Assembly (NCBI GenBank): GCA_030642005.1
Contig: DAOWOP010000001.1
Span: 1 to 46,498, forward strand
Direction: 5' to 3'
Origin: Planctomycetales bacterium
GTDB lineage: Bacteria; Planctomycetota; Phycisphaerae; SM23-33
DNA length: 46,498 bases
Part shown: positions 6,118 through 24,237 of the stretch, piece after piece
How positions within the stretch are numbered: the first letter of the stretch is position 1
Layout: each line of letters starts with the position of its first letter
Made by a program: the position numbers and the translations under genes
The notes under the pieces: model-generated
What the model was told of the DNA's origin: nothing
Seen by the model: the letters and a program-made list of their open reading frames with translations, nothing else
Database searches by the model: none

Positions 6118-7476
6118 GTGTGGCATGGAGAATCGGGCGTGATTGTAGCAACGCCACAACATGATGAGCAGCTTCGAGGTAGGCTTGAAGCGCTAACAGA
6201 ACACGACCGGGACTACTGGTCGTTTAGGGGCAATTCACGCCGAGAGTATGGCCATGGACTTTTTCAGTACCCAGCCATGATGGTACCGCAAGTAGCCCGC
6301 GCCGTTCTCAAAGAAGCCTGCGCTGTTCACCCCGAAATCGAGCGAGCAGGCGATCCATTTTCGGGATCGGGAACAATCCTGACCGAAAGCATGATGCGCG
6401 GTCTTGCATTTTTTGGGACAGATATTAATCCCTTGGCGGCACGGCTGTGTCGGGTTAAGAGCGGGCCGTTCTTCGTTGAGGCATTGGGGCAGAAGGCTAG
6501 TGAAGTCGTTGCTCATATCGATGGTGATAAACGGTGGGCTGTTGAGGCCAATTTCATGAACCGGGACAAGTGGTTCCGAAGGGACGCACAAGTTGCACTG
6601 TCGAAGGTCCGTCGAGCGATTCGTCTCGAAAAATCGGCATGGGCTCGTAGATTCTTCTGGGTCGCTTTGGCCGAAACCGTTCGAGCCACAAGCAACTCTC
6701 GCACATCAACCTTCAAGCTGCACATTCGGACGCAAGAGGAAGTGGAAGGACGCGACCTCGACCCGATTGGTGTCTTCAAAAAAGTGGTTGTCCGCAATGT
6801 TCAGCACTTGAAGGACCAGGCCAGCCAACTGTCGGAAGCAGGCCAACTTGTGCGCGGTCATTACCAGCAAGACATAACCGTATCGCTTGACGATATTCGG
6901 CAAAGCACGGATCAGCCCCTGTGCGACATCATTGTAACTTCGCCACCGTACGGAGATAATGCAACCACTGTTCCCTATGGCCAGTACTCATACCTGCCAC
7001 TTCAGTGGATCGATCTTGAAGACATCGGAACAAACGTGGACGCTGGCTGTCTAGCATCGACTCACGAGATCGATACGCGAAGCCTCGGCGGTAGTAAGCG
7101 AGTGAAGAAGGCAGAGCCTGATCAGATCAAGGAGCGATCTCCAGCATTTGCGAGATACATCGGGAGCCTCAAGGATCAACCACGAGATCGCGCACAGCGG
7201 GTAACCGCCTTCTTCCGCGACTTGGACGGGTGCCTTGATCCGATTCTCAAGAGTCTGCGTTCTGGCGGTCTCATGGTTTGGACGCTGGGGAACCGGAAAG
7301 TTGGGGGGAAACGGGTTCCTTTGGATAAGATTCTTGCGGAATTGCTTTCGGCCCATGGTGCAAGACTGCTATGCAAGCTGACGAGGAAAATATCCTCAAA
7401 ACGCATGGCACTCAAGAACAATATCGCAGACACGATGTCGAGCGAAGCAATCCTGGTGATGCGGAAGGCAGTGTAA
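6118..7476 (+). CDS. DNA methyltransferase (N6-adenine or N4-cytosine class), orphan-like, first gene of a coupled triad
   Basis: SAM-binding motif I DPFSGSGTI, catalytic motif IV TSPPYGD about 195 aa downstream, and a YPAMMVP element near the N-terminus. The ORF-track start is GTG at 6118. GTG at 6139 has a better RBS (GGAGAA at 6127-6132). The stop is 1 nt before the next start. Confidence 0.75.
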   Translation: MWHGESGVIVATPQHDEQLRGRLEALTEHDRDYWSFRGNSRREYGHGLFQYPAMMVPQVARAVLKEACAVHPEIERAGDPFSGSGTILTESMMRGLAFFGTDINPLAARLCRVKSGPFFVEALGQKASEVVAHIDGDKRWAVEANFMNRDKWFRRDAQVALSKVRRAIRLEKSAWARRFFWVALAETVRATSNSRTSTFKLHIRTQEEVEGRDLDPIGVFKKVVVRNVQHLKDQASQLSEAGQLVRGHYQQDITVSLDDIRQSTDQPLCDIIVTSPPYGDNATTVPYGQYSYLPLQWIDLEDIGTNVDAGCLASTHEIDTRSLGGSKRVKKAEPDQIKERSPAFARYIGSLKDQPRDRAQRVTAFFRDLDGCLDPILKSLRSGGLMVWTLGNRKVGGKRVPLDKILAELLSAHGARLLCKLTRKISSKRMALKNNIADTMSSEAILVMRKAV

Positions 7477-7477
7477 T

Positions 7478-9964
7478 ATGGCGAAGGATAAGAAATCACA
7501 TTTTGAGGTGCATCCCTCTGTTGTGTATCAGCTCGGCGAGAGCCTAATCAGTGATGCCGTTCAGGCGTTAATCGAGCTTGTAAAGAACTGCTATGATGCC
7601 GATGCCACCTACGCCAAGATCACAATCGATACGCAGGGGGCAGTGGAGGTCGCCGGAGCCCTCTACCCTTCAGAAGGGGGCCGAATTATCGTCGAAGACG
7701 ATGGTTACGGGATGGACCTGGAGGATGTCGAGTCGGGCTGGCTGACGATCTCGAACAGAAAGAAGCGTGACCTAAAACAGGCCAAGAAGACCACTCCTGG
7801 TGGGCGCACACCTCTTGGCGACAAAGGACTGGGACGACTTGGCGTACAGCGTCTCGGCGACAGCCTGGAAATATTCACGAAGTCCAAGAAGGAGTCGGGA
7901 TACCATTTTGGCTTCTCCTGGCTTGACTTCGAGACTGCGCCAAAGCTTGAAAACGTTGATATCCATCTTGCCAAGATCAAGTATCCTCGGTCGTATGGAA
8001 CGAAGGTGGTTGTTTCGGGCCTTCGGGAACCCAAGTTCTGGCAAGGTCAACCCGCAATCAAACGCCTTGAGCAAGAGCTCTCGCGGATGATCTCTCCGTA
8101 CAAGCAAATCCGTGATTTCATGGTGGTCGTTGAAGTGGACGGAAAGCCGCTTGAGTTACTCGAGATCAGCGACAAGGTTCGTAGGATCGCTCCGATTCGG
8201 TACAGCCTCGTATTTGATGGAACGAATTTAGTCGTTCATGGTCGAACTCGACTGGACTTCTTCAGGCCATCGTCACCAAGGGAGTCCGAACAGTTTGCAT
8301 TGATCGCTGAATCGGATGGTGGCCAGGCATTCTATAAGTTTCTCGAAGGGCATAAGCTTGCAAAGATCATTGGTCTGGGCCAGTCACGTGCAAAGCAATG
8401 GTATTGCGAGTTTCACTGGCAGAAGGCTTTGGGCGATCTCGACAAGGTAGAGCGTGAGAGTTCCGATGACGGGAACGTGGCAAACCCAGGACCGTTCACA
8501 GGAGAAGTGGATTCTTTCAATCTTGGCACCTCTTCGTTTCAGCAGCAATCCGTCTTTGATCGCATCAGCGAATATCGTCGTCACATCAAGGAATTAAGCG
8601 GCATTCGTGTGTATCGAGATGGATTCGCAATCAGAGTCGATCACGACTGGCTCAAGTTGGGTGCGCAGTGGACATCGGCAACATCCTACTATGGCCTAAA
8701 GCCGGACAATACACTCGGATACATTGCCCTTTCTGCTCGGGACAACATAGAGTTGGAGGAGACAACAGACCGCGAAGGCTTCAAGGACTCACCTTACTAC
8801 CGAAACTTCTATGCTCTGCTGGAGGAGTTCAAGAAGTTTACGACAATTGCTCACGACTTTTTCGGTCGCTCCTGGGCGGAGTTTCGCAAAAAGCGAAATG
8901 AGGAATTGGCACGGGTTGATGCGCGGAAAACGGTAGAGAATATCTCCCAAACGATAAAGAAAGGACTTGCTGAGGCACCAACGCACCAGAAGAGCCTTGA
9001 TGCGCTGACGGCAAGGCTCAGCGCCAGCACATCGGCGTCAAAGGCAGTTGTCTCTGGGCTGCAATCGGCAAAGGAGATAACGCCGGAACTCCGGAAGAAG
9101 GTCACAGAGGCCCTGTCTGCTTTGGAACCGCTCCTTGAAGAAGCCAAGGGTGTGATAGGACGGTTGTCTGCGTACCTCGAAGAGGTGGGAGCCCTGCGGG
9201 GCATGGGGCAAGTGCTGGAAGACCGCGTTGATGGCTTGCGACGACAGATGGACGACATGTACGAGACGGTCGCACTGGGGCTGACGGCCGAAGCGTTATC
9301 TCATGAGGTATTCAATGTGGCCGACCAACTTGCTAAGCGAACTAAATCGGCGCAGACCACATTGAGGAAGAAAGGCATTACAGACCGCCCCATCCTTGCC
9401 TTTATCGAGTACGTCCACTCGGCCGTCATGGCTCTCCGTAAACAGATGTCCTATTTGTCGCCGTCGTTGCGATATGTGCGTGAGCAACGGCACGACATCA
9501 ACATCCGCGAGTTCTTGGCTGATATTGCAGAGTTTTACGCCGAGCGATTGGCCAAGAACAACATATCGATACGAGTCGAATGCGCAGATGATGCGCTCTT
9601 CGTCATTCGTATGAATAAGGGCAAACTGACGCAGGTTATAGACAATTTCGTCCTGAACAGCGAGTACTGGCTTAAAGAGGACATCACGCAAAAGCGACAA
9701 TCGTCCGGCATAATCTTTCTTGATATTGCCCGCCCATTTCTTCGAATCTACGACAATGGCAGCGGTATCGATCCCAACGTAGAAGACGCGATCTTCGAGC
9801 CGTTTATTTCAGCGAAGGCAAAGGGGCAAGGACGCGGTCTTGGGCTATTTATCGTGAAGCAGTTGCTGGATTCCGAGGGCTGCAGCGTAGGACTGCTTCC
9901 AGATCGCAACAAGCGCCGGCGAATGTTCAAGTTCCAGATCGACCTCCGGGGGGCACTTGCATGA
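7478..9964 (+). CDS. Dual GHKL-fold ATPase: N-terminal MORC/Hsp90-like ATPase module fused to a C-terminal histidine-kinase-like (DHp plus HATPase_c) module
   Basis: N-terminal N-box ELVKNCYDADA, G1 box VEDDGYGM and G2 box GDKGLGRLG. C-terminal H-box-like ALSHEVFNV, then NFVLNSEYW ... YDNGSGIDPNVEDAIFEPF ... GQGRGLGLFIVKQL. No transmembrane segments are evident. Confidence 0.7.
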   Translation: MAKDKKSHFEVHPSVVYQLGESLISDAVQALIELVKNCYDADATYAKITIDTQGAVEVAGALYPSEGGRIIVEDDGYGMDLEDVESGWLTISNRKKRDLKQAKKTTPGGRTPLGDKGLGRLGVQRLGDSLEIFTKSKKESGYHFGFSWLDFETAPKLENVDIHLAKIKYPRSYGTKVVVSGLREPKFWQGQPAIKRLEQELSRMISPYKQIRDFMVVVEVDGKPLELLEISDKVRRIAPIRYSLVFDGTNLVVHGRTRLDFFRPSSPRESEQFALIAESDGGQAFYKFLEGHKLAKIIGLGQSRAKQWYCEFHWQKALGDLDKVERESSDDGNVANPGPFTGEVDSFNLGTSSFQQQSVFDRISEYRRHIKELSGIRVYRDGFAIRVDHDWLKLGAQWTSATSYYGLKPDNTLGYIALSARDNIELEETTDREGFKDSPYYRNFYALLEEFKKFTTIAHDFFGRSWAEFRKKRNEELARVDARKTVENISQTIKKGLAEAPTHQKSLDALTARLSASTSASKAVVSGLQSAKEITPELRKKVTEALSALEPLLEEAKGVIGRLSAYLEEVGALRGMGQVLEDRVDGLRRQMDDMYETVALGLTAEALSHEVFNVADQLAKRTKSAQTTLRKKGITDRPILAFIEYVHSAVMALRKQMSYLSPSLRYVREQRHDINIREFLADIAEFYAERLAKNNISIRVECADDALFVIRMNKGKLTQVIDNFVLNSEYWLKEDITQKRQSSGIIFLDIARPFLRIYDNGSGIDPNVEDAIFEPFISAKAKGQGRGLGLFIVKQLLDSEGCSVGLLPDRNKRRRMFKFQIDLRGALA

Positions 9965-11712
9965 GTGATCAAAACGCCATTGCACACGCGCGTACCGCAG
10001 TTGAGCGCATTCTAACGGCCCTCCATGTTGCGCGCGTTGTCTGTGTTGATGACACCTATGGCGGTGGTACATCGCTGGAAGACGTCATCGCTGCTGCCAC
10101 TGATCTGGATGCAGACCACTTAGTCAATGCAGTGCCCGAACTAGGCGAGAACGTCCCGGATGATCCGGACATTCGACGCGAAAAACTGCGCCAGATATGG
10201 GGACAGATGGATGAGGATACGCGTTCCAAACGAGCCGATGCAGTGCTCATAGCGACCAGACGCCAAGACGACGATGAAACGGATGACCTCGCCGATGCTT
10301 CGATCTTGGGCGAACTGATCCCCGAGGACAATCTGGTAACCATCTCCCCGTCGCAATGGGAGGAACAGAAAGAGAAACTACTGACGCCTGATGGCGATCA
10401 GCGCACCCTCTTTCTGTTCGACCGTGACTTCTCCGAAGACGGTGGCGACAGCGACGGGGGTATCAAGATCATTGCCTCTCTGCTTGCAAGGAACGACACT
10501 GAAAATCTTATCTGCGGTCTTTTGACTCACACGGTGACGCCGGAGAACCAGTCGGAACAGTGGGACGAATTGAGCAAGGCTTACAGTATTCCGAGGGATC
10601 GATTCGTAGTGATTCCCAAGTTACATCTGAGCAGAGATCCGGTTCTCTTCGCTCAGACGCTGAAGTTCGTAGCATTGTGCCCCGACTTCACGGAGCTAAA
10701 GCGTAAGACAAAAGAGATTATAGCAGATGCAGCCGCCACTGCAGCCAATCGCGTCGATGAGATGAGCATCTTTGACCTTGATCACATAGTCTTTCAGGTT
10801 TCCGCCCAAGAAGGACTCTGGGAGCCCGACATGCTGTTTCGACTCCACACGTTGTTCCATCGCCTTGAGTCCCGACGTCTGGCACATGAGGGTGGGGAAC
10901 TTGAAACAATTGCGGCCAAATTAAGGGCCGTCAGCGAGATTCCGACCAATTGCGCTGCGTTCACTCCGCCCTCGAATGCATGGGCAATCCAACGGGACGA
11001 GCTCTTCGAATCGGACGTTTACATCAACCAGAATCACTTGCCATTGGAAGCTGGAGACATCTTCGAGCGGGTGGGAGCGTCCAGTAGTAAACGGTACATT
11101 CTGCTGGCCCAGCCATGCGATCTGATGGTGCGAAGCAATGGAAAACGACATCCCGAACTCGACCGGGTTCCCATGGCCGAAGTTGTGTGTAATGAGCAGA
11201 CATCTCACTATTCAGAGGAACTGCCGTATTTCGGCTCGTCTCCCGCAGAGAGATGGCACGTCAAACTGAAACTTGTCCATCAAGTACGGGTGTGCATCCT
11301 TGATCTGTGCGTCCTGAACGACGATGGGGTTGCGAGGCTGGTTGTTGGTGGCAATGCCCCAGCGAATATGCGCCCTGCTTGGAACAAACGCCATGCCATT
11401 TTGTCTCGTCTCATGGGCCGCATAATACGCAAGGCGGATCTGTGCGCTCCAGTTGCGAATGAATCAACTGCTGTAAGCCAAGTAAAGACGGCTATTGCGA
11501 GTGGCATGACGAGCGTGCTATTCGACGAAGCGTTATTCAAGGGCACCCTTGCAAAGGTTGGCGGGGCTCGCACGGTAACCTATGACTGCCGGCGAATCGC
11601 TCGAGCATCTCGGGCGCGGGCCTTCGGTTTGTTGATGGCCTATACAGGCTGCTTGAGCCGTCCAGCCTATGATCGTGTCTTTACTCCGACACAGGTCACG
11701 GGAGACCAATGA
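9961..11712 (+). CDS. Hypothetical protein with an N-terminal receiver (REC)-like region and a ~350-aa C-terminal domain of unknown function
   Basis: ATGA overlap with the upstream kinase-like gene. REC-like strand pattern: VVCVDDTYGG, then RTLFLFDRDF (candidate acceptor Asp), GLLTHTV and IPKL. The C-terminal part has a conserved-looking GDIFE...ILLAQPCDLMVR element that I cannot assign to a family. Confidence 0.5.
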   Translation: MSDQNAIAHARTAVERILTALHVARVVCVDDTYGGGTSLEDVIAAATDLDADHLVNAVPELGENVPDDPDIRREKLRQIWGQMDEDTRSKRADAVLIATRRQDDDETDDLADASILGELIPEDNLVTISPSQWEEQKEKLLTPDGDQRTLFLFDRDFSEDGGDSDGGIKIIASLLARNDTENLICGLLTHTVTPENQSEQWDELSKAYSIPRDRFVVIPKLHLSRDPVLFAQTLKFVALCPDFTELKRKTKEIIADAAATAANRVDEMSIFDLDHIVFQVSAQEGLWEPDMLFRLHTLFHRLESRRLAHEGGELETIAAKLRAVSEIPTNCAAFTPPSNAWAIQRDELFESDVYINQNHLPLEAGDIFERVGASSSKRYILLAQPCDLMVRSNGKRHPELDRVPMAEVVCNEQTSHYSEELPYFGSSPAERWHVKLKLVHQVRVCILDLCVLNDDGVARLVVGGNAPANMRPAWNKRHAILSRLMGRIIRKADLCAPVANESTAVSQVKTAIASGMTSVLFDEALFKGTLAKVGGARTVTYDCRRIARASRARAFGLLMAYTGCLSRPAYDRVFTPTQVTGDQ

Positions 11713-11830: not shown

Positions 11831-12823
11831 TCACCCTCTTCGCTGCGAAGGCGGCCGGATGCGCGGCCCAATGTGAGCACCATGTAGTCCATCGGACGTT
11901 GGCGGGAAGACACTCAAGTGGAGAAGATGGTCCTCGACCTGCAGGATCTGACCAAGCACGTCCTCGGCATCGAAACGCAGATCGTCACCAAGCCCCACCG
12001 CGTTGAAGGCCTGGCATTGCTGTTCGGCAACGTGCTCCAACAATACGCTGGCTGCCTTGGCGGTGAACGTCTTGTTGGCCTTGTCCTTGGCTGCCTCGGC
12101 GTCGACGGCGTAGCTCGCCACCAGTCGCGCCCAGACTGCCTCGAGCGTTGAGGGCGAGTCAAAGGCGTCCGCCGCCACGAAACGCCCACACACGGCCGCC
12201 ACGACGCCACACGTGCCAGAGGGGTACGGTAATGCCTCGTGATAGCGCCCGAGCACTTCGGCCAGTGTGTCCATTGCATCGGACATCGCACGGGTTGGTG
12301 AAGGGGCGGCGCAGGCCTCGATGTGTTCGGCCACGTTGTCCCACACGGCTCCTTGATCGCTTTCGGCCCGGCCACAGGCGCGAAGGCTGAACTGAACGTC
12401 GCGGCTCTTGCGCTGGCGCAAGCTGCTCGGCGCGTAGTTGCCGGTTTTGAAGGTCGGACTGGTGTGGCTCCACCGGCCTTCCTCGACGCAGGATACCGGG
12501 ATGCGGGTCTTGGACTTTGGCGGCAATAGCACACTCGTGTTGAGGATTCGATTCTGCTTCGCGCCCTGGAGTTCCTCGCCGTCCAGCAGCAATATCGGCC
12601 GGTCAGCGTTATTGACCGCCAGGAGTTCCGGCACTGTACCGGACTCATCAACCTCGGTTACCGTCAGCATACCAGCGTCGATGGCTTCGGACGCCAGCAG
12701 GTAGTCCTGGAATCGTTGCTGATGCCCCTCCCCCCGCAGGGGCACCAGCGTCAGGTTCTGGTGGCCTATCGCGGCCCCGGGTACCAGGGTTGGGAGAACG
12801 TCTTTCATTCGGATCGTGGTCAT
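11831..12823 (-). CDS. Conserved hypothetical protein, divergent from the WYL regulator gene
   Basis: The ORF track starts at TTG 12844. ATG at 12823 is preceded by AAGGAAAGGG and is the more likely start. The N-terminal half (NLTLVPL...LTVTEVDESGTVPELLAVNNADRPILLLDGEELQGAKQNRILNTSVLL) recalls a widespread bacterial DUF family (possibly ARPP-1/DUF6569-like). That is from memory only and unverified. Confidence 0.55.
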   Translation of the reverse strand: MTTIRMKDVLPTLVPGAAIGHQNLTLVPLRGEGHQQRFQDYLLASEAIDAGMLTVTEVDESGTVPELLAVNNADRPILLLDGEELQGAKQNRILNTSVLLPPKSKTRIPVSCVEEGRWSHTSPTFKTGNYAPSSLRQRKSRDVQFSLRACGRAESDQGAVWDNVAEHIEACAAPSPTRAMSDAMDTLAEVLGRYHEALPYPSGTCGVVAAVCGRFVAADAFDSPSTLEAVWARLVASYAVDAEAAKDKANKTFTAKAASVLLEHVAEQQCQAFNAVGLGDDLRFDAEDVLGQILQVEDHLLHLSVFPPTSDGLHGAHIGPRIRPPSQRRG

Positions 12824-12872
12824 GGCTATCCCTTTCCTTATCAAGTTGCCGATACAAGGGTAACCGGGGCCT

Positions 12873-12893
12873 GTGACAGGTCCGGTCGCACCT
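12873..12893 (-). promoter_or_regulatory. Operator-like box, copy A (17/21 match, oriented toward the minus-strand gene 11831-12823)
   Basis: The reverse complement reads AGGTGCGACCGGACCTGTCAC against the consensus ACCTGCGACCGAACCTGTCAT. It lies 50 nt upstream of the ATG at 12823. Confidence 0.55.
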
Positions 12894-12920
12894 GGCCAAG
12901 ATTTCTCAAAAAAATTCGTG

Positions 12921-12941
12921 ACCTGCGACCGAACCTGTCAT
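12921..12941 (+). promoter_or_regulatory. Operator-like box, copy B (exact 21-mer ACCTGCGACCGAACCTGTCAT) upstream of the WYL regulator gene
   Basis: Identical to 13970-13990. It is preceded by an A/T tract and ends 41 nt before the ATG at 12982. It contains an internal direct repeat ACCTG-N7-ACCTG. Confidence 0.65.
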
Positions 12942-12981
12942 GGGTATGGATTACCCTCCACAGTGACGAAAGGATGCAAGT

Positions 12982-13959
12982 ATGGCTCGAGGCGATGGCC
13001 TGTTTCGACAATGGGAATTGATCAAGGTGCTGCAAGCCCACCGGTTCGGCGTAAGCACCGACGAGATCGCCGCGCGCCTCGAGTGCAATAAGCGGACCGT
13101 CCAGCGTGACCTGGGCGTCCTCCAGGACATCTTCCCGATTAGTTACGAGCAGCGGGACCGTGGCAAGCGGTTCTGGAAGATGGCCTACAACACAATCGAA
13201 TCGGAAGAGCTTCAACTGACGATGACCGAAATGTTGAGCCTGTTCCTCTCGCAGCAACTGCTCCTGCCGCTTTCGGGAACCCAGTTCGGCGACGGCCTCC
13301 AGACGGCCTTGCAGAAGATTCGAGCGCTGCTGCCGGCGCGGGCGCTGACGTACTTCGATGGCCTCGACGAGTCATTCTTCATCAAGAACCTGGCCAACCA
13401 CGACTACTCCGGCCAGGACAAGGAAATCCGCATCATCAACGAGGCCATCCTGAACCAGAAGACTGTGAAGGTAATCTATCGCTCGGCCAGCAAGGGTCGT
13501 GAGGTCATCAGTGAGTTCCACCCGTACGGCATGGTCCTGCTGCACGCGTCGCTGTACTGCATCGGCTACCTCGCATGCTACGACGAAGTCCGCACGCTCA
13601 AGGTGGCCCGGATCAAGGGCCTGACGCGGCTGGACAAGACGTTCAACAAGCCACTTGATTTCTCGCTGGCTGGCCACTTCCAGGGCGCGTTCGGTGTCTT
13701 CCAGGCTAAGAAGAAGCAGAAGATTCGAGTTGAATTCACCGGATGGGCGGCCACGAACGTTCGGGAAATGCAGTGGCATCCGACCCAGAAGATAGTCAAG
13801 GATGCTGGCGACAAGGTCGTCGCCACGTTCGATCTGGGCAACACCGTCGAGTTCAAGCGGTGGGTGCTGGGGTTCGGACTGCACGCCCGCATCATCAGTC
13901 CCAAGGCACTGGCCGAGGACCTCCGGGACGAAATCCAGAGCATGGCCAAGAATTATTAA
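12982..13959 (+). CDS. WYL-domain transcriptional regulator (HTH-WYL-WCX architecture, BrxR/CapW-like)
   Basis: N-terminal wHTH (WELIKVLQAHRFGVSTDEIAARLECNKRTVQRDLGVL), central WYL-type segment (VKVIYRSASKGREVISEFHPYGMVLLHASLYCIGY) and a C-terminal extension. RBS AAAGGA lies 7 nt upstream of the ATG. Confidence 0.85.
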   Translation: MARGDGLFRQWELIKVLQAHRFGVSTDEIAARLECNKRTVQRDLGVLQDIFPISYEQRDRGKRFWKMAYNTIESEELQLTMTEMLSLFLSQQLLLPLSGTQFGDGLQTALQKIRALLPARALTYFDGLDESFFIKNLANHDYSGQDKEIRIINEAILNQKTVKVIYRSASKGREVISEFHPYGMVLLHASLYCIGYLACYDEVRTLKVARIKGLTRLDKTFNKPLDFSLAGHFQGAFGVFQAKKKQKIRVEFTGWAATNVREMQWHPTQKIVKDAGDKVVATFDLGNTVEFKRWVLGFGLHARIISPKALAEDLRDEIQSMAKNY

Positions 13960-13969
13960 TATTTTTTCC

Positions 13970-13990
13970 ACCTGCGACCGAACCTGTCAT
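13970..13990 (+). promoter_or_regulatory. Operator-like box, copy C (exact 21-mer) upstream of the ABC-ATPase/kinase/regulator/GHKL-nuclease operon
   Basis: Exact repeat of 12921-12941, also preceded by an A/T tract (aattattaatatttttt). It ends 58 nt before the ATG at 14048. Confidence 0.65.
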
Positions 13991-14047
13991 ACCTCCCCTT
14001 TATGCTGAACCCATCCATTATGGGTTACATGCGTAAAGGGCAATGAA

Positions 14048-15934
14048 ATGAACGAAAAAAAGCGTTGTCACCGGCTCAAGTCGCTGTCGGTGGTCGGTGG
14101 GTTTCTGGATGGGTTGAATATCGAGTTTGCCGACGGGCTGAATTGTCTTATCGGCCATCGTGGTACGGGCAAGACGACCGTGCTGGAGTTTATCCGTTAT
14201 GCCCTCGACGAGTTTCCGCAAGACGATGGAGGGCTGGCCCGCAAGCGGGTCGAAGCACTGGTCAAAAGCAACCTCAGCGACGGCCGCATCCGGCTGGCAC
14301 TGGAGACCAAGGATGGGTTGGAGTACATCGTCGACCGGACCGCCAGTGGCGAGCCGATGGTCCTGACCACTGATGAGCAACCGACGGACGTTCGCATCAA
14401 CACGGCGGGCATTTTCAGCGCCGATATCTTCAGTCAGAACGAGGTCGAGAACATCGCCGACAGTCCACAGTCGCAGCTGGAGCTGATTGACAAGTTCGCA
14501 GCCGGTCAGATCGCAGAGGTCAACCGCAAGGTGACGGCGGTGCGGGCCAAGATGGAGGCGAACACCAACGCCATTGTTACCCATGACCAGCAGTTGAAAG
14601 GTCTGGTCGACGAGGTCTCCGCGCTGCAGTTCATCGAGTCGAAGATCAAGTCCCTTACCGATGATAAGAGCGACCAGACGGATGATGAGGTTAACGTCGC
14701 GCAGCAGCATCGTGCGCTGCGGGGACGTGAGAGCCAGGCGGTCAAGGAGGCAGAGGAACTGATCCAGCAATACAGCCAGTGGCTCCACGATTCGCGCGGT
14801 CAGTTTATCCAGCGAATCGAAACGGCCTTCGACCCGTCAATGTTGGACGGGCCGAATGGCAAGGTGATGAGCCGCATTCAGGAGAATCTCAGGCGGCTTG
14901 GGAGCAAACTGGATCGCCTGTTCGACCAGGCCGCCGGCGTGGTTGATTCCGGTGGGAATGAACTGGCGGAACTGGTCGGCAAGCTCCAGCACGCCCACCA
15001 GCAGCAGGAGCTGGCGTTCCGCGACCTGATCGCCAAGGACAACCATGCACGCGGGGTGGCCACGGAGCGGGCGGAATTGGAAAAGAAACGTAATGATTTG
15101 CTAGCCAAGGATCGGCGTAAGGCTGAGCTTCAAAAGCAGATCGACCAGCTCTATCGGGAACGGTCTGATCTGGCCGGGCAGCTCCGTGAATTGTGGTCCG
15201 AGCGATTCGAGCTGCGGCAGCAGGTCGCCAACTGGATTAACGAGGGCGCGACGTCGCCTATTCGCGTCCGGATCGACCAGTGCGGCAACCGTTCGGTCTA
15301 CCAGCAGGCGTTGGCCGGCTGGATGAAGGGATATGTGCGCCAGTACAACCCGGCGGCCAGGAAGATAGCGGACTACGTGCCACCGAGCGACCTGCTGCGG
15401 ATGGTCACCGAGGGACGCACCGATGATCTTCAGGCCCAAGCGGAACTCGGAGACACGCAGATGGCCAAGGTGATGGAGGCCCTGAACCGTCTTGATGTCC
15501 AACTGCAGCTCGACTCGGTTGAACTGGCCGATCTGCCACGGCTTGAACTGCTGGACGGTGAGGAGTGGAAGAACTCTCTGCATCTTTCGACCGGCCAGAA
15601 GTGCACGACGATTCTGCCGATCCTGCTGCTGGAGAGCGACAACCCATTGCTCGTCGATCAGCCTGAGGACAATCTCGACAACCGCTATATCTACGACACG
15701 GTGGTCAATGCCATCCATCGGGTGAAGCAGAACCGCCAGATTATCCTGATCACGCACAACCCGAACATTCCCGTTCTCGGCGAGGCGTCGGCGGTGTACG
15801 TGCTGACCAGCGACGGCGAGCGAGCCCGTATGGCGAACCAGGGCTCCGTGGACGACTGCAAAACCGAGATCATCAATCTCCTGGAAGGCGGCAAGGAAGC
15901 CTTTGTCCGCAGGAAGGACAGGTACAAATACTGA
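14048..15934 (+). CDS. SMC/Rad50-like ABC ATPase with a long central coiled-coil insert
   Basis: Walker A IGHRGTGKTT at the N-terminus. About 330 aa of heptad-like, charged sequence in the middle. Signature-like LSTGQK and Walker B/D-loop LLVDQPEDNLD near the C-terminus. Confidence 0.75.
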   Translation: MNEKKRCHRLKSLSVVGGFLDGLNIEFADGLNCLIGHRGTGKTTVLEFIRYALDEFPQDDGGLARKRVEALVKSNLSDGRIRLALETKDGLEYIVDRTASGEPMVLTTDEQPTDVRINTAGIFSADIFSQNEVENIADSPQSQLELIDKFAAGQIAEVNRKVTAVRAKMEANTNAIVTHDQQLKGLVDEVSALQFIESKIKSLTDDKSDQTDDEVNVAQQHRALRGRESQAVKEAEELIQQYSQWLHDSRGQFIQRIETAFDPSMLDGPNGKVMSRIQENLRRLGSKLDRLFDQAAGVVDSGGNELAELVGKLQHAHQQQELAFRDLIAKDNHARGVATERAELEKKRNDLLAKDRRKAELQKQIDQLYRERSDLAGQLRELWSERFELRQQVANWINEGATSPIRVRIDQCGNRSVYQQALAGWMKGYVRQYNPAARKIADYVPPSDLLRMVTEGRTDDLQAQAELGDTQMAKVMEALNRLDVQLQLDSVELADLPRLELLDGEEWKNSLHLSTGQKCTTILPILLLESDNPLLVDQPEDNLDNRYIYDTVVNAIHRVKQNRQIILITHNPNIPVLGEASAVYVLTSDGERARMANQGSVDDCKTEIINLLEGGKEAFVRRKDRYKY

Positions 15935-17082
15935 TGATTGAACGGACTCAATCCAACCTGGAAGAGGCCTGCAGCCTGCTGCACCGGAACCCGCAACATA
16001 TGTCGGGCGACGAACGCCGACGTTTGGTCACGAGCATTACGGACGCCATCCTGTGCGATGATGCCGCCGGCGATACGGTGGTTACCGATCTGGTCGACCT
16101 GCTGGCCCGCGACCCTGACTGGGCCGTTCGGCTCGATGTGGCGCGGATGGTGCATCTGCTTGATGACGAGTCGTGCAGCCGCTTGGTGGCGATTTTCCGG
16201 GGCGATTGCAACAGTTACGTCCGCAGCCATGCCGAGCGGAGCCTCGCCCGGCAGCGTAAGGTCCGTCAGACTTCGAGCCGCAAACGCATCGAATGCCGAA
16301 CTTACTCAGAGCAACTGGACCAGTTGACTCGTCAGTACGGCAAACGAGTCGCGGCCAAGGTCCAGGCCCTTGCCGACCAGCGGTACGCCATGCTCGCCGC
16401 CGCCGTGGCCCATGACGTGCGAAGCATTCTTACGACGCTCTCGGCCAACGCGGCCGCCCTTGCTGATGAGCTTGGTACGGCGAACCGAGCAGCCTCCATC
16501 CTCGAGGACATCGGATTCCTCAAGCGGACCATCGAGGCGATGGAACAGTTTACCAAGCCGCTGCCGGTCCAGCGTCATCCCGAAGACCTTCAACAGATGA
16601 TCCAGCAGGCCATCGAAAAGGCTCGGGAAGGCGTGATCCAACAGCGTCACGATCCCTCAGCCGTGGAGGTCGTGGTAGCAGCCGCGCCGGCCATTCGACT
16701 GCGAGTGTCTCGCCGCTTGATTGTGTTTGCGCTAACGAACGTGATCCAGAACGCCATCGAGTGTTTCGCCGACCGCGAGGTAGACTCGCTGCGGGCTGGG
16801 CGTATCGAGGTGCAGGTGGTCGTGGACGGCTACGAAACGCGGATTATCGTCATTGATGATGGCCCTGGAATCGAGCTGGAGGTACTCAAGGAACTGACCT
16901 CTTTCGCACCCACCGGGCCGAACAAGTCCAAGCGTAACAGCTCGGGCTGGGGCCTTAGCCTGGTGCATAAGTACGTCACTGCTCACGGCGGGTCGGTGGC
17001 CATCGACAGCGAGATGAACCAGGGCACAACCGTAGTGGTCACACTGCCCATGCGAGATTCAGCCGGGGGAGATGACGAATGA
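15934..17082 (+). CDS. Soluble histidine kinase with an N-terminal HEAT-repeat-like region
   Basis: HEAT-like LARDPDWAVRLDVARMV, H-box AAAVAHDVRSIL, N-box NVIQNAIEC, G boxes VIDDGPGIE and GWGLSLV. No TM segments. 1-nt overlap (TGATG) with the upstream gene and ATGA overlap with the downstream gene. Confidence 0.85.
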   Translation: MIERTQSNLEEACSLLHRNPQHMSGDERRRLVTSITDAILCDDAAGDTVVTDLVDLLARDPDWAVRLDVARMVHLLDDESCSRLVAIFRGDCNSYVRSHAERSLARQRKVRQTSSRKRIECRTYSEQLDQLTRQYGKRVAAKVQALADQRYAMLAAAVAHDVRSILTTLSANAAALADELGTANRAASILEDIGFLKRTIEAMEQFTKPLPVQRHPEDLQQMIQQAIEKAREGVIQQRHDPSAVEVVVAAAPAIRLRVSRRLIVFALTNVIQNAIECFADREVDSLRAGRIEVQVVVDGYETRIIVIDDGPGIELEVLKELTSFAPTGPNKSKRNSSGWGLSLVHKYVTAHGGSVAIDSEMNQGTTVVVTLPMRDSAGGDDE

Positions 17083-18140
17083 AGGTGCTCGTGGTTGAAG
17101 ACGACCGTAAGATCAAGATCGAGACCATCGATGATTGCCTGGAATCCCCGGGCCACGTCAGTGACTGGGCACAGAACCAGCAAGAAGCCAACGGCCTGCT
17201 GGTCGCCAACAACTACGATCTGATTCTGCTTGACCTGCAGATTCCATCGAGACCGGGTGGCAAAGACTCGCCCGAATTCGGCAAGAACTTGCTGAAACAG
17301 ATCCGCGCACGCAAGGGACGGGATGTGCCGGTGATCCTGATGACGGCCCAGTACCAGCACTGCGTAGACCTGATGATCGAGCTTCAGGATATCGGTATCG
17401 ACGGCAGTATCGCCAAGCCGTTTCCGACGTCGGGGCGAACACTGGCCGTGGTGATCGAGGAGGTGATGGAAAAACATCGGCGTTTCCGGCGGGCGGCCAA
17501 AGCGAAGGACCAGACCGAGTCGCTCACGACGTTCGCCGGCGGCGTGCTGGCCTATCACCCGCGCCGCATCGAGCTGTGCGGTGAGACCATCGCCGAGAAG
17601 AGTCGAAGGGGCTATGCCTGGCAGATTCTCCATGTGCTCCGCGAGACGAACGACAAAGGCAAGTATATCCATCTGGGCAGCCAACGTCTGGCACCCAAGC
17701 TCGACCCGAAGCCCATGCAGAACACGCTGATCCGGTCGATCTGCTCACTGCGGTCCCGCATCCGAAAACTCATGCGGAATCACCTTGGGCAGGATTGTGG
17801 CCAAGAGGACATCATCGGCAATGACGATCATGGCTACTACCTGCTGGACTGGCTCATCACCGAGGTGTACGACGAGGCCGGGACGCTGGTCGGTGGGGGA
17901 AACGGTGTGGCCAAGTCGGCCCATGCGAAACAAGGCGGCGAGCCCGCCCAGCAGTTCAGCGAAAAGCAGCGATGGGTGCTGGCCCAGTTGGCGTCGGAAG
18001 TGAATCTAACCCGTCGTGACGTTGAGACGGAGTTCCACATCAGCGAACGCACGGCCAAAAGGGTGCTCGGCGAGTTGTCGGGGGCAGGCATGATCGAGTT
18101 CGACCGGTCGGAAAGCCCCGGCTTCTACCGGCTGAAGTAA
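17079..18140 (+). CDS. Response regulator: REC domain, OmpR/PhoB-type winged helix, and an additional C-terminal HTH
   Basis: MKVLVVEDD, DLILLDLQIP (acceptor Asp), PVILMTAQ, AKPF. The middle region follows the Trans_reg_C pattern (RRIELCGETI...YAWQILHVL...IRSICSLRSRIRKL...HGYYLL). The C-terminal segment ISERTAKRVLGELSGAGMIEF is HTH-like. Confidence 0.85.
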   Translation: MKVLVVEDDRKIKIETIDDCLESPGHVSDWAQNQQEANGLLVANNYDLILLDLQIPSRPGGKDSPEFGKNLLKQIRARKGRDVPVILMTAQYQHCVDLMIELQDIGIDGSIAKPFPTSGRTLAVVIEEVMEKHRRFRRAAKAKDQTESLTTFAGGVLAYHPRRIELCGETIAEKSRRGYAWQILHVLRETNDKGKYIHLGSQRLAPKLDPKPMQNTLIRSICSLRSRIRKLMRNHLGQDCGQEDIIGNDDHGYYLLDWLITEVYDEAGTLVGGGNGVAKSAHAKQGGEPAQQFSEKQRWVLAQLASEVNLTRRDVETEFHISERTAKRVLGELSGAGMIEFDRSESPGFYRLK

Positions 18141-18281
18141 CGTGAGCGTTCTTGCGGATCAGAATCTGTATCGGCGTATGGTGACATGAGTTGGAATCAT
18201 GCTGACACCTCAGTCCCGGCGCGTTAGCATGGGTGGCGCAAGTCGAGACTGTTTCGTGCATGGAAAGCGGGCAGAGTTGGC

Positions 18282-21200
18282 ATGAGTCGGCACAATGACC
18301 TTGTGGAGGACTACCTGCAGGATGGCGGGCAGTTGTCAGAGGCAGTGATGGTTGAGAATCTGGAACAGTGCGAACCTGAAGACCTGAACGGGGATGCAGC
18401 CCTCGCGATCTCTAAGATCGCTGAGGACCAACGTGGCCTCTATGAGCGTGAGCCGAGAGAGCTGATCAGCCACTATAACCGCGAGACGAGTGCGCTCGAT
18501 GGTTACCGGGGTCGCCAGATCCTAGAGCTGCTCCAGAATGCAGACGACGCCGGTGCTGATCTCGCGGATGGCTCCCAAGTCGTTTTTGCCTTGGATCGCC
18601 ATCATCTTGTTGTTGCCAACACGGGAACACCGTTCACTTACGACGGGCTGATGTCACTGGTCATCAGTGATTGCAGTCCGAAGCAGCTTGAGCAGAATCG
18701 CTTCATTGGCTGCAAAGGATTGGGCTTTCGGGCCGTGTTGACGTGGACTGAACGGCCCTTGATTGTCAGTGGCTCGCTTCAGGTGTATTTTGACCGTCAG
18801 GCAGCGACTCGCTATGTCGAATCGTTGGCCCAGGACGGTTCAAGGCCCAACCGCGTAGATGATTACCACCGCTCGGTTGGTCGTTGGCCAGTTCCAGTGA
18901 TGCGATTTCCTTTGGTGCCAGCAAACGACCACCCAGACCTTCGGGTTGTACAGCGGTTCCAAGCGAGGGGGTTTACTACGGTAGTCGTATTACCGCTGCC
19001 TGAAGGAGATCGAGGCGATGAAGTGTTCGCGGAAGCTGAGGAACAGCTGACAGAACTACCCTCTGCAGCGTTGCTCTTCTGCCGGCACTTGGTCGATGTT
19101 AAAATCGAAGGCGCTGTGACAAGAAACTGGCTCTTGATCCGCGAGGAAGTAGACCACGAGAGGTCAAGGGTCATTATCTCCGATGGTGAGCAGAGTACTA
19201 CTACTTACTGGGATATCTACCGGCGATCAGGAAGGGTGCCACCAGAGGCCGATACCGAGTCCACAGGTGGCCGGCAGGAGTATGAAACAGGAGTTGCTGT
19301 ACCCGAAACAACAGACGCACCATACGACCGGAACGCTCTTTGTGTGTTTTTTCCCACCCGCGAACGCCTGCCATGCCCGCTTATCTTCCACGCAACGCTC
19401 GAGACAACGGAAGACCGAAATCGGATTGTCGATCACGCATCGAATCGCTATGTCCTGAAGGCATTAGCGGCGCACTTGGCCAGCGTTCTTGAGCAGGAGT
19501 CGCAGGGCGAAGATTCACATAGGCCCTTACGACTGCTGAGCGGAATCGAGAACGCCGACCCTGAACTCGTGAGGTTGGGCTTCGTCGAAAGCGCGAAACA
19601 AGCCGTGCGGGACACGCGGTTATTTCCCCGTCTCGACGGTCGTTTGGAAACAGCCGACAACACGGTTCTTCCGCCGCATGACGTATGGGCCGATGTGGCG
19701 GACGCCAGATGGTTCCCGGAAATGCTAGTGCTACCCTCGAACGAACGAACTGTGGACCTTGTGCGTTGGTTGGGGCTCTCGTGGCTGGACCGGGATTCTC
19801 TGAAGTTGCGTCTGCGGACGATGGTCGCGGCGGCTGAGCCTGAACGAGCGGGCACAACGCTTGGCCAACTGGTTGATGCGAACCAGCTGCGCTCTATTGG
19901 AGTCAATGGCTTTCTGCTGGAACGGCAGGGCTGTCCTGTTGCCGAAGGTGAAGAGTGTTTCTTCACGCCGACCGAGGAGTTGCCGCCACTGCCAGCATGG
20001 GCGCAAGGCGTGCGATTCCTGGATGCCGCTTTTCAGCGTGCGCTGTTGCAGGCATCCGGCCACTCGTCCCTTCGCGGCCTGGCCGGCGAGATGGAGCGAA
20101 ACGCGGCCAAGGTATCCGAGTACCGATTCGACACTGTGGCGCGTGCGATCATTTCACCCCTGAATTTGGATAGCGAATTGCCCGATGCCGAGCGAGTGCA
20201 ACGCTGGCGAGAGATCTTGGCATGGCTGCTTCGGGCGTCTGAGGGTTCGCGGCAAGTTCTTTCGCAGCTACCGGTCAATGTCGTGACGGCTAAAGGCACA
20301 CTAAAGCGAGCAACTTCTCTATACCTCTCTGGCGAATACCAACGTGGTCGACTCGTGGCCCGTCTGTACGGGCCGCTCGATGAGGACGACTTCGTGGCGA
20401 AGCCTGAAGGATTGGGCTTGTCCGAACTCGGCGAGGTAGAGGTGGAGGAGTTCCTGATCGCCCTTGGGGTCCATGCAACGCCACGGTCTACATCACTATC
20501 CACCACCTATAGTCGGCCGAATGTGGACTACCGCGCTTTCCGCGAGTTCGTGGTGGATAGCCTTCCATTCCCGATCTCCGTGCGATCAAAGCTGTGCGAA
20601 TCGCCAAGCGATGTGCGCAGCCACTGCAGCAGTTACCAGATCAAGGGTGTGAACGTACCTGATCGGTTCCTACGCATACTCAAAGAGGGAGATCCCGTCG
20701 CCGTCATGGCCTACCTGATGTCTGAACAGCAGACAGTCTTGTCTGCCGAGAACATCGAGAGCGCATGTTTCCAGGCCACGATTGAAAATGAACGGAACTA
20801 CCGGGATGATCACGCCGTGCCCATCCCCAACCCGGTGCTGCATTGGCTTAGAGAGACCCCATGGGTGCCAGGCCAAGATGGTGAGCGGCATCGTCCCGCT
20901 GAGATCATGCTGAGCCGCATCGGCCTGAGGGTGCTGCCCAGCGTGTACTGCCGACATGCGATTGATCACCGTAATGAGATGCTGGCCTCGCGGGGTGGCA
21001 AACAGGCCATGGACGCGGTCTTGTGTCGTCTCGGGGTTGTGGCATCGCTGGAGACGATGGCGAGTGAGCAGGTCTACGACCTCCTCCTGTCTTTGCCCGA
21101 GCGCGACCCGCAAGGACAATCCGTCTCGGCGATCTACCGCACGTTCCTGGAGTCGAATATCACCGCCGAGGACGGTCCCAACCGCTCGGAGTTTCTGCGG

Positions 21201-23205: not shown

Positions 23206-23391
23206 CCCATCCTCCACGACGGGCCGATGGCACCGGTGCCATATCTGCAATACTGCCGGGCTTCTTTTGGCGGCGGATTCGGAGCCAGCCATCCGACGCT
23301 ATCCCAGAAAACATCTTGACGCATGAGGCTACGAGATCGACAATATCATATGGTAGATTGCACTCTCCCCCGGGCGAAGGAATGGTATTCA

Positions 23392-24237
23392 ATGGATATC
23401 GACTGGCTCCAGAAGCGGTTCCCCGACTTGACCAATTTCGTCCCCTTGGCTCCAAGCGGGCAGAAGGAGGTATTTGCTGCGGATCACAAGACTGAGGGCG
23501 CAGTGGTGCTTAAAATATTCAAGCCGGGGTCTAACGCCGAGCGCATCCAACGAGAGATGCAATCACCGCTCAAGATGAGAAGTTCACGCATACCGACGAT
23601 ATACGAGTTGGGCCGAACAGATTCGCCTACCGGCGAGATCGTCTGGCTCCGAGAGAAGAAGGTTGAAGGCCAGAGCCTGAGGGAAATACTTAAGGCGAAG
23701 GGCAAGCTCGACGAGGGGACCACCATCAGGATTGGCCTCCATGTCATTGATGTGCTGGCTGCCGCCGAGGTCGCGAGCGTGGTTCATCGCGACATAAAGC
23801 CTGGCAACATCATCATTGCCATGGACGGCAGCGCGTGGGTAATCGATTTCGGGCTGGCGCGTCATCTCGATCAGGAGTCACTGACGCCTACCGTGGACAA
23901 ACTAGCTCCCTGCACGCCCGGCTACGCGCCCGTCGAGCAATTCACAAACCAGAAACACAACATCGACGCTCGAGCTGACCTGTTCGCAACGGGCGTGACT
24001 CTCTACGAGTGCCTTGAGGGTGAGAATCCGTTCCTCAAGGGAGTGATAGACTGGAAGGAAGCATTCGGTCGTGTTATGAACATGAAGATGCCCAGGATCG
24101 GAACCAGCGGTGTGTCGGAAGAGTTCGTCGATCTTGTCGACTCGATGACACGCACAAAGGCGGAACACCGCCCAGCTACGGCGGCGGTGGCGTTGCAGTG
24201 GATCAGAGAAATCGCCATGGCGCATAAGATCATCTAG
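23392..24237 (+). CDS. Ser/Thr protein kinase (Hanks type), kinase domain only
   Basis: VVLKIFKPG (catalytic Lys region), HRDIKPGNIII, DFGLAR, TPGYAPVEQ. The ORF track starts at 23323. ATG 23392 (MDIDWLQ) follows GAAGGAA and is the more plausible start. Confidence 0.85.
   Translation: MDIDWLQKRFPDLTNFVPLAPSGQKEVFAADHKTEGAVVLKIFKPGSNAERIQREMQSPLKMRSSRIPTIYELGRTDSPTGEIVWLREKKVEGQSLREILKAKGKLDEGTTIRIGLHVIDVLAAAEVASVVHRDIKPGNIIIAMDGSAWVIDFGLARHLDQESLTPTVDKLAPCTPGYAPVEQFTNQKHNIDARADLFATGVTLYECLEGENPFLKGVIDWKEAFGRVMNMKMPRIGTSGVSEEFVDLVDSMTRTKAEHRPATAAVALQWIREIAMAHKII

Follow-up and report, generated by a model that had tools for sequence, protein, structure and literature searches.

What does a short sequence box do when it stands ahead of a WYL-family regulator gene and of both transcription units flanking that gene, within a bacterial defence island, and would the neighbouring regulator use it to repress or to activate? 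This question is raised by a 46,498-nt stretch of the genome of a Planctomycetales bacterium (contig DAOWOP010000001.1, positions 1 to 46,498; hereafter the window), in which three copies of a 21-bp box surround the gene for a 325-amino acid (aa) WYL protein (12982-13959, + strand). An initial annotation, made from the sequence alone, had regarded the boxes as the operators of a local WYL regulon and had likened the regulator to BrxR and CapW, which are known repressors of defence operons. As argued below from the resemblance to characterized systems, we consider it probable that the boxes belong to three WYL-dependent promoters of the activator type, whose regulator would be a relative of DriD, PafBC and DdaA rather than a BrxR/CapW-type repressor.

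Occurrence and conservation of the box

A direct scan of the window found the 21-mer ACCTGCGACCGAACCTGTCAT in two exact copies only, both on the + strand (12921-12941 and 13970-13990), together with an inverted copy at 12873-12893 whose reverse complement, AGGTGCGACCGGACCTGTCAC, matches the 21-mer at 17 of 21 positions. This arrangement is the one originally annotated, and none of 100 dinucleotide-preserving shuffles contained the 21-mer, even with three mismatches permitted. The 17-nt core TGCGACCGNACCTGTCA is present without a single mismatch at all three sites, and no fourth site was found in the 46.5-kb window at up to three mismatches. We refer to the three sites as box 1 (12872-12890, - strand), box 2 (12924-12942, + strand) and box 3 (13973-13991, + strand). 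Scored with a weight matrix built from the boxes of other loci alone, with the window boxes left out, they reached 42.7 bits (box 1), 34.9 bits (box 2) and 39.9 bits (box 3), compared with 13 bits for the runner-up elsewhere in the window and 16.8 bits for the best score in 20 shuffles.

Each box is oriented toward a gene. The end of box 1 lies 49 nt from the minus-strand ATG at 12823 of a gene encoding an ARPP-1 domain protein, the end of box 2 lies 40 nt from the ATG at 12982 of the WYL gene itself, and the end of box 3 lies 57 nt from the ATG at 14048 of a TrlF-like gene. Both the distances to the start codons and the gene-ward orientation agree with the initial annotation, and independent gene calls from the source assembly gave identical starts (ARPP-1, 330 aa; WYL, 325 aa; TrlF-like, 628 aa). 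The A/T-rich tract described ahead of both exact copies is likewise real, with an A+T content of 70% at 12896-12918 and 83% at 13945-13967, and turned out to be a family-wide feature as well.

The two + strand copies are also alike for about 28 nt further upstream of the 21-mer (12893-12941 versus 13943-13990, with one indel). Boxes 2 and 3 share even the spacer that varies between species, and their likeness reaches 28 nt upstream into the final WYL codons; in the orthologous promoter pairs of three related loci (L002, L003 and L005), the spacers differ between the paired boxes. This pattern points to a recent event in this lineage, either gene conversion between the two promoters or duplication. 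A structured RNA was considered as well and dropped, as an Rfam scan returned merely sub-threshold matches to microRNA hairpins, which were caused by the inverted box pair.

The WYL regulator has hundreds of homologues at 60–93% identity, of which the named ones come from metagenome-assembled genomes (MAGs) of Phycisphaerae/Planctomycetes. For comparison we used 80 metagenome loci (designated by L numbers), picked solely for encoding a WYL homologue and amounting to 568 kb with the window included. An IUPAC scan of this set for the degenerate core TGYGACC-N4-CTGTCR, allowing at most one mismatch, returned 105 occurrences, while about 2.4 would be expected by chance at uniform base composition. 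The alignment of 89 distinct instances gave the consensus aGG-TGYGAC-C-N4-CCT-GTCR, with the half-sites TGYGAC and GTCRCA placed 7 nt apart. The box is thus a 19-bp pseudo-palindrome, TGYGAC-N7-GTCRYR, which becomes a perfect palindrome in many ARPP-1 promoters (TGCGAC-CGGACCT-GTCGCA). A non-palindromic reading, in which TGCGACC was set against TGACAGG and the box was taken for a -35/-10 pair or a promoter of an alternative sigma factor, was abandoned once realignment as TGCGAC-N7-GTCGCA had revealed the pseudo-palindrome.

We then counted boxes upstream of genes, on the same strand and within 250 nt, at a weight-matrix threshold above the best shuffle score. A box preceded 35 of 36 ARPP-1 homologues and all seven TrlF-like homologues, in the latter case at 58–60 nt, while the internal histidine kinase and response regulator genes that follow the TrlF-like gene had no upstream box (0/4 and 0/6, respectively). 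Only 17 of 66 WYL homologues carried a box, nearly all of them in loci with a divergent ARPP-1 gene. There the two genes share a bidirectional region, and the gap between the two box cores is kept at 33–34 nt in most loci. More distant relatives have ARPP-1 on the downstream side of the WYL gene, with either one box or a tandem pair 46–47 bp apart ahead of it. Such tandem boxes, which precede ARPP-1 in those of the loci where this gene was detected downstream, were seen at L039 4140-4203, L042 8060-8123, L051 7137-7200, L055 1035-1098, L061 1920-1983 and L064 6784-6846. The upstream box of the pair is probably an auxiliary site, because in most loci it is followed by a conserved CCTAACA and not by the TAnnnT hexamer described below.

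Orthologous boxes keep their half-sites while their spacers have diverged, across proteins of 45–90% identity, and by such comparative criteria the box is functional, with ARPP-1 as the target that is most constant in the family. Because the box is conserved in dozens of related loci, it is also ruled out that the 21-mer is a generic repeat, an outcome that had been named as fatal to the regulon idea. In its local form this idea holds: the boxes are a specific cis-element of the WYL family, placed ahead of the WYL gene and of both flanking units. The further claim of autoregulation combined with control of both flanks stands for the flanks, given the counts for ARPP-1 and the TrlF-like gene, and is narrowed for the WYL gene, since box-based autoregulation is, among the loci compared, confined to one clade.

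Promoter architecture, the regulator and the sign of regulation

The box stands in a fixed relation to a -10-like hexamer. TAnnnT was found exactly 11 nt past the box in 48 of 90 distinct instances, any other offset occurring 0–6 times, so that the spacing reads GTC-N12-TAnnnT from the proximal half-site. Where a -35 would be expected, the sequence belongs to the variable spacer of the box, and the hexamer there agrees with TTGACA at 0.9–1.7 of six positions on average and never at four or more. Given that canonical -35/-10-like sites do exist in these genomes, the absence of a -35 at the boxes is meaningful. An extended -10 TG was present in only 3 of 47 promoters, and the -10 hexamers averaged 3.5 out of six matches; box promoters therefore look weak on their own, as far as their sequence tells. 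Upstream, between -26 and -11 from the box, A+T was enriched to 0.5–0.7 over a background of 0.40 (91 instances).

The same grammar can be read three times in the window. Box 1 (TGCGAC-CGGACCT-GTCACA), where a WYL dimer is predicted to bind the ARPP-1 promoter, is followed after 11 nt by a predicted -10, TACCCT (12857-12862, - strand), with a predicted start near 12850. Box 2 (TGCGAC-CGAACCT-GTCATG) is the corresponding predicted dimer site of the WYL promoter, with a predicted -10 TACCCT at 12952-12957 (+ strand), a predicted start near 12964 and, at the -35 position (12929-12934), the hexamer CCGAAC, which matches TTGACA at two of six positions. The A/T-rich spacer common to these two divergent promoters (12894-12920; 70% A+T) is a candidate UP element or contact region for the C-terminal domain of the RNA polymerase alpha subunit (alpha-CTD), by analogy with the DriD complex. 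In the operon promoter, the predicted dimer site is box 3 (TGCGAC-CGAACCT-GTCATA). It is preceded by the A/T-rich tract 13945-13967, which overlaps the last WYL codons and the stop, and is followed by a predicted -10 TATGCT (14001-14006, + strand), which aligns with TACGCT, TATCCT or TACATT in the leaders of TrlF homologues, and by a predicted start near 14013. Near this start, the leader of the TrlF-like gene opens with the hairpin AACCCATCCATTATGGGTT at 14007-14027, and similar CCCAT...ATGGG inverted repeats occur in the homologue leaders of L009, L010, L019 and L082; the hairpin could be a 5' stem-loop of the mRNA or a second operator.

The adjacent WYL protein (12982-13959) has the Pfam domains HTH_11 (residues 10-54), WYL (150-215) and WCX (246-322), with a helical linker (74-126) predicted at low confidence in an AlphaFold model. 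Its closest solved structure by sequence is DriD (phmmer E 2e-9; family profile 6e-14), followed in the profile search by PafC (5.5e-7) and PafB (1.8e-4), while no BrxR or CapW chain was found by sequence or profile search at E up to 1. Foldseek, run on the low-confidence model, ranked DriD (8e-14) before PafBC (1e-11) and BrxR/CapW (about 1e-6 at 10–11% identity). The model served solely to rank known structures and, given its low confidence, the fold ranking leans on the sequence comparison. R38, T39 and R42, which align with DriD R37, T38 and R41, are invariant in 15 homologues. In a pairwise alignment at about 21% identity, Y166, R173, Y192, R204, K207 and F240, either identical or conservative replacements, align with the DriD single-stranded DNA (ssDNA) contacts Y168, R176, Y192, R204, R207 and Y240. 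The RWHVR motif occurs nowhere in the regulator; the strand carrying the WYL motif reads HASLYCIGYL instead, in which S190, L191, Y192, C193 and G195 do not vary across the family. By these comparisons, the regulator is closer in sequence and fold to known activators than to known repressors.

We therefore propose the following model. A homodimer of the WYL protein would bind a ligand in its WYL domain, most likely ssDNA arising from DNA damage or phage attack, whereupon its two winged helices would dock on the two half-sites of a box. The bound dimer would cover the would-be -35 position, with the proximal GTC exactly 12 nt ahead of the weak -10 (TACCCT, TACCCT and TATGCT), and would assist RNA polymerase with its housekeeping sigma factor at promoters that have no -35, while the upstream A/T tract may serve the alpha-CTD. 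Three outputs are predicted: ARPP-1, on the divergent side, would be induced, the WYL protein would raise the expression of its own gene, and the operon encoding the TrlF-like ATPase, the histidine kinase and the response regulator would be induced. We regard it as very likely, from the sequence comparisons, that the boxes are bound by the adjacent WYL protein; provided that it is the binder, activation is the likely outcome, by analogy, because the box combines DriD/DdaA-type half-sites with the PafBC spacing and replaces a missing -35, and because the protein is akin to DriD and PafBC and devoid of the RWHVR motif.

Several points weigh against this model. The site architecture, the fixed spacing, the conservation, the gene association and the protein relatedness are direct observations, from which we infer the binding by the WYL protein, the ligand, the transcription starts and the sign of regulation. 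The weight-matrix counts of upstream boxes reuse instances found with a pattern derived from the window, and the missing -35 was scored against the E. coli consensus, which may not be that of Phycisphaerae. Identity to DriD is merely about 20–22%, the spacing agrees with DriD to within 1–2 nt and exactly with PafBC only, and three DriD residues, Arg178, Lys202 and Arg288, are not kept in the pairwise alignment (S/V, E202 and V289, respectively). The AlphaFold model has a mean predicted local distance difference test (pLDDT) score of 63.8 and a predicted template modelling (pTM) score of 0.37, from a 15-sequence alignment. Moreover, a repressor too could bind over the -35 position, and the WYL gene lies in a defence island, as do those of BrxR and CapW.

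The last two points lead to the alternative that fares best, although we judge it unlikely: a repressor of the BrxR/CapW type would hold the three promoters in the unstressed cell, until a ligand in its WYL domain frees its own gene and both flanking units. The winged helix-turn-helix (wHTH)-WYL-WCX architecture is the same, the gene is found near restriction-modification systems, Tiamat and a kinase, and BrxR and CapW bind palindromes in promoters shared with their own genes and are released by ssDNA. A site over the -35 position could repress sterically, and either kind of regulator would lead to the same physiological output, induction upon DNA damage or phage attack. BrxR and CapW were, however, retrieved in the fold search only, far behind DriD, and the RWHVR motif typical of the WYL strand of these repressors is absent. 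BrxR operators are 10–11-bp inverted repeats with a 5-bp spacer, located downstream of the -10, whereas the box, with half-sites of 6 bp separated by 7 bp, is located upstream of it. Repression also presupposes a promoter that is strong by itself, which is not what the missing -35, the weak -10 hexamers and the rare extended -10 indicate here, and the strict 11-nt phasing between box and -10 suits an activator in contact with RNA polymerase, while a roadblock needs none. Site geometry, -10 spacing, kinship and the absence of RWHVR thus weaken the repressor analogy drawn in the initial annotation and favour activation.

Less credible still, and in our view improbable, is that the boxes are read by another factor, be it an alternative sigma factor or the response regulator encoded in the downstream operon, with the WYL gene as a mere conserved neighbour. 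The strict orientation and the fixed distance to a -10-like hexamer do resemble a sigma-dependent promoter, and the response regulator (17079-18140) has a weak C-terminal match to a wHTH. Yet the loci were picked by WYL homology alone, and almost every one whose flanks are long enough contains the box; the half-sites and gap of this dimer-type pseudo-palindrome are those of the experimentally mapped DriD and DdaA sites, and the base-reading arginines of DriD are invariant in the family; furthermore, boxes precede ARPP-1 in many loci without the TrlF-like, histidine kinase and response regulator genes, so that the response regulator is not the general binder. Hardly tenable, finally, is the view that the boxes are by-products of duplication without a regulatory role, whether as members of a repeat family or as direct repeats on either side of a WYL cassette that had been inserted, for even though the + copies are identical over 21 nt including the interspecies-variable spacer, are alike for about 28 nt further upstream and bracket the WYL gene, there are no extra copies in the window, conserved half-sites around a diverged spacer are the signature of selection on a binding site, boxes track ARPP-1 and TrlF-like genes with or without a WYL gene beside them (for which reason the direct repeats of a mobile WYL cassette were dropped as an explanation), only eight exact matches to the extended motif described below, seven of them in Planctomycetota and upstream of genes, exist in 596 Gb, and a recent conversion between two functional promoters accounts for the local identity.

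If activation by the WYL protein is correct, the promoter grammar TGYGAC-N7-GTCR + 11 nt + TAnnnT would be a concrete and testable one in a phylum whose regulation is almost unstudied, and the way in which DriD, PafBC and DdaA replace a missing -35 would extend to Planctomycetota. A WYL gene in a defence island should then not be assumed to encode a BrxR/CapW-type repressor. ARPP-1 and the TrlF-like/two-component module would be tied to a probable DNA-damage or phage-alarm signal, which suggests when they are expressed and offers a route to their function, and the box motif could serve to locate inducible defence genes across planctomycete genomes.

Genes of the locus and the wider distribution of the box

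Searches against Pfam, NCBIfam and PADLOC identified the window as a defence island, in which the WYL gene is surrounded by a type I restriction-modification system, a type II-like methyltransferase/restriction endonuclease pair, the TrlF/Ppl-like ATPase, TmtA and a PD-T4-6-like kinase. On one side, the type I system (51-6050) is followed by a methyltransferase gene (6118-7476), a gene for an 828-aa BbrUII-like HATPase protein with two HATPase_c-type domains and a BbrUII/HgiDII-like N-terminus (7478-9964), and a gene that overlaps the latter by 4 nt (9961-11712). The 583-aa open reading frame (ORF) of this last gene had no match in Pfam, NCBIfam or PADLOC; together, 7478-11712 could form an uncharacterised two-gene restriction-like module adjoining the methyltransferase. 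The divergent target of box 1 (11831-12823, - strand; 330 aa) is defined by its ARPP-1 domain (Pfam PF20208, E 5e-91). It had no relative in the PDB at E up to 1 and no PADLOC or NCBIfam match, and a literature search returned no relevant paper on its function.

On the other side, the box 3 operon begins with the 628-aa TrlF/Ppl-family SMC-like ATPase (14048-15934, + strand), which matches the NCBIfam TrlF family (E 2e-84) over model positions 290-944 only and also gives Ppl/mad3 matches in PADLOC. A histidine-kinase-like gene with HEAT and HATPase_c domains (15934-17082, + strand) overlaps its stop codon, and the receiver-domain response regulator (17079-18140, + strand) is the last conserved gene of the operon; the three occur together and in this order in L002, L003, L009, L010, L019, L020 and L082. 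Further downstream lie TmtA of the Tiamat system (18282-22628; E 7e-199) and a PD-T4-6-like Ser/Thr kinase gene (23323-24237). Neither the core scan nor the weight-matrix scan found a box ahead of the TmtA start at 18282, and the 141-nt spacer before it contains a canonical sigma-70-like CTGACA-17-TAGCAT at 18202-18230. No terminator was found between the response regulator gene and TmtA, the spacer folding no better than shuffles (z = 0.15), so that read-through into TmtA is possible. Because TmtA was absent from every examined locus that carries the TrlF-like, histidine kinase and response regulator genes, it looks, on comparative grounds, like an independent neighbour. Of the functional locus that had been drawn from 11831 to 22628, only the part up to 18140 is thus backed.

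To see how far the box extends beyond these loci, we scanned 185,579 species genomes (596 Gb), a collection without the source genome, for exact matches to TGCGACCGNACCTGTCR-N11-TAnnnT. Eight matches were found, seven of them in Planctomycetota MAGs, where chance would give about nine spread over all taxa. The matches precede an operon of TrlF-like, histidine kinase and response regulator genes, a WYL gene divergent from ARPP-1, an IetA/TRIP13-like AAA+ ATPase gene, a type IIG restriction-methylase gene and a type I restriction subunit gene, and one Phycisphaerae MAG contains three matches on three contigs. In the metagenome loci, boxes also precede YbjN-like, AAA+, metallo-beta-lactamase-fold and LexA-like helix-turn-helix (HTH) genes. 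The last of these refers to L028 545-561 (- strand), where the gene behind the box has a LexA-type DNA-binding domain (PF01726, E 3e-8), which hints at a link between the box regulon and the DNA-damage response.

Tandem promoters were observed at L086 947-1030, L087 2482-2570, L088 6220-6319 (- strand) and L089 3017-3110. In these, the box promoter is followed about 35–45 nt downstream by a canonical TTGACR-N17/18-TACTAT or TATGAT, an arrangement seen upstream of restriction genes of types IIG and I as well as within a viral contig; such pairs, if read correctly, would set an inducible and a constitutive promoter in tandem. The viral case, L089 3017-3050 (IMGVR_UViG_3300010346_002920, IMG/VR), is a perfect box with a -10 in a 67.9-kb contig classified as viral, adjoining a large 620-aa ORF, and may mark the edge of a prophage or else belong to a phage promoter served by the WYL activator of the host.

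Taken as a small sample, these matches suggest that the regulon reaches beyond the local genes, with defence at its centre. It is tempting, though doubtful at this stage, to go further and regard WYL and ARPP-1 as a two-gene alarm module across Planctomycetota and the box as the mark of a phylum-wide defence regulon under one ssDNA-sensing activator. Were this true, the activator would switch on ARPP-1, as an effector or a signal enzyme, together with any immune systems that have acquired the box. These would include AAA+ ATPases, restriction enzymes of types I and IIG, and the TrlF-like ATPase accompanied by its two-component system, some of them combining the inducible promoter with a constitutive one in tandem. 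Phages, given the box in the viral contig, might exploit or sense the same alarm.

Comparison with known WYL regulators

The proposed activator resembles DriD of Caulobacter crescentus most closely. DriD is a homodimeric, ssDNA-triggered activator with a wHTH-three-helix bundle (3HB)-WYL-WCX architecture, which recognizes ATACGAC(N7)GTCGTAT, generalised as CGNC(N7)GNCG, by reading two conserved guanines per half-site with Arg37 and Arg41. Its promoters have no recognisable -35, and that position is covered by the site, whose distance from the -10 is constant. The planctomycete box is of the same site type, with the site in the didA promoter, TACGACCGTTTCTGTCGCA, being nearly the same sequence as TGCGACCGAACCTGTCATG here. 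The proteins are nearly equal in length (325 aa versus 327 aa for DriD), the base-reading arginines are kept in the planctomycete regulator, most of the ssDNA contacts align with identical or similar residues in the pairwise alignment, and DriD likewise has a site ahead of its own gene. The differences lie in the host, Alphaproteobacteria versus Planctomycetota, with the low sequence identity given above, in the proximal half-site, which is degenerate in the window boxes (GTCAT/GTCAC), and in the targets, which are genes of DNA damage and cell division (didA, recA, recJ, bapE and dnaG) for DriD and ARPP-1, the TrlF-like/two-component operon and, in relatives, restriction genes for the planctomycete family.

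PafBC of mycobacteria, the second-best relative in both sequence and structure, is a heterodimeric WYL activator that works by sigma adaptation at promoters without a -35 and controls about 150 DNA-repair genes. Its in-vivo motif is tGTCgg(N10)tA(N3)T; PafBC reads the -26 element alone with one HTH, inserting itself between sigma region 4 and the DNA. The grammar of the proximal half-site, GTC-N12-TAnnnT, is identical in the two systems, and the -35 is absent in both. In contrast to the PafBC heterodimer, the window has a single gene and a palindrome with two half-sites, which points to a symmetric homodimer, as for DriD.

DdaA of Moraxellaceae (Acinetobacter) is a WYL activator of DNA-damage and anti-phage networks; it acts globally, replaces the SOS system, and activates type I restriction and CRISPR-Cas genes via the promoter motif CGWCA-N5-TGWCG. 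The box has the same palindrome geometry, and the restriction targets of DdaA are comparable to the type I and type IIG restriction genes behind boxes in Planctomycetota MAGs, so that the likeness is one of motif and targets. DdaA differs in its global role, as no repair genes were seen behind the planctomycete boxes, save one LexA-like HTH gene and one metallo-beta-lactamase-fold gene.

BrxR and CapW, the WYL repressors of BREX, CBASS and other defence islands, are alike in domain family, defence-island setting, a bidirectional promoter region shared with a neighbour and a probable ssDNA ligand. They differ in being distant relatives, in their RWHVR motif, in the design and position of their operators, and in that the promoters described here look activator-dependent. 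Set beside these systems, the mechanism class proposed for the three boxes is a known one; the novelty lies in the phylum, in ARPP-1 as the constant target and in the connection with a TrlF-like ATPase and a two-component system.

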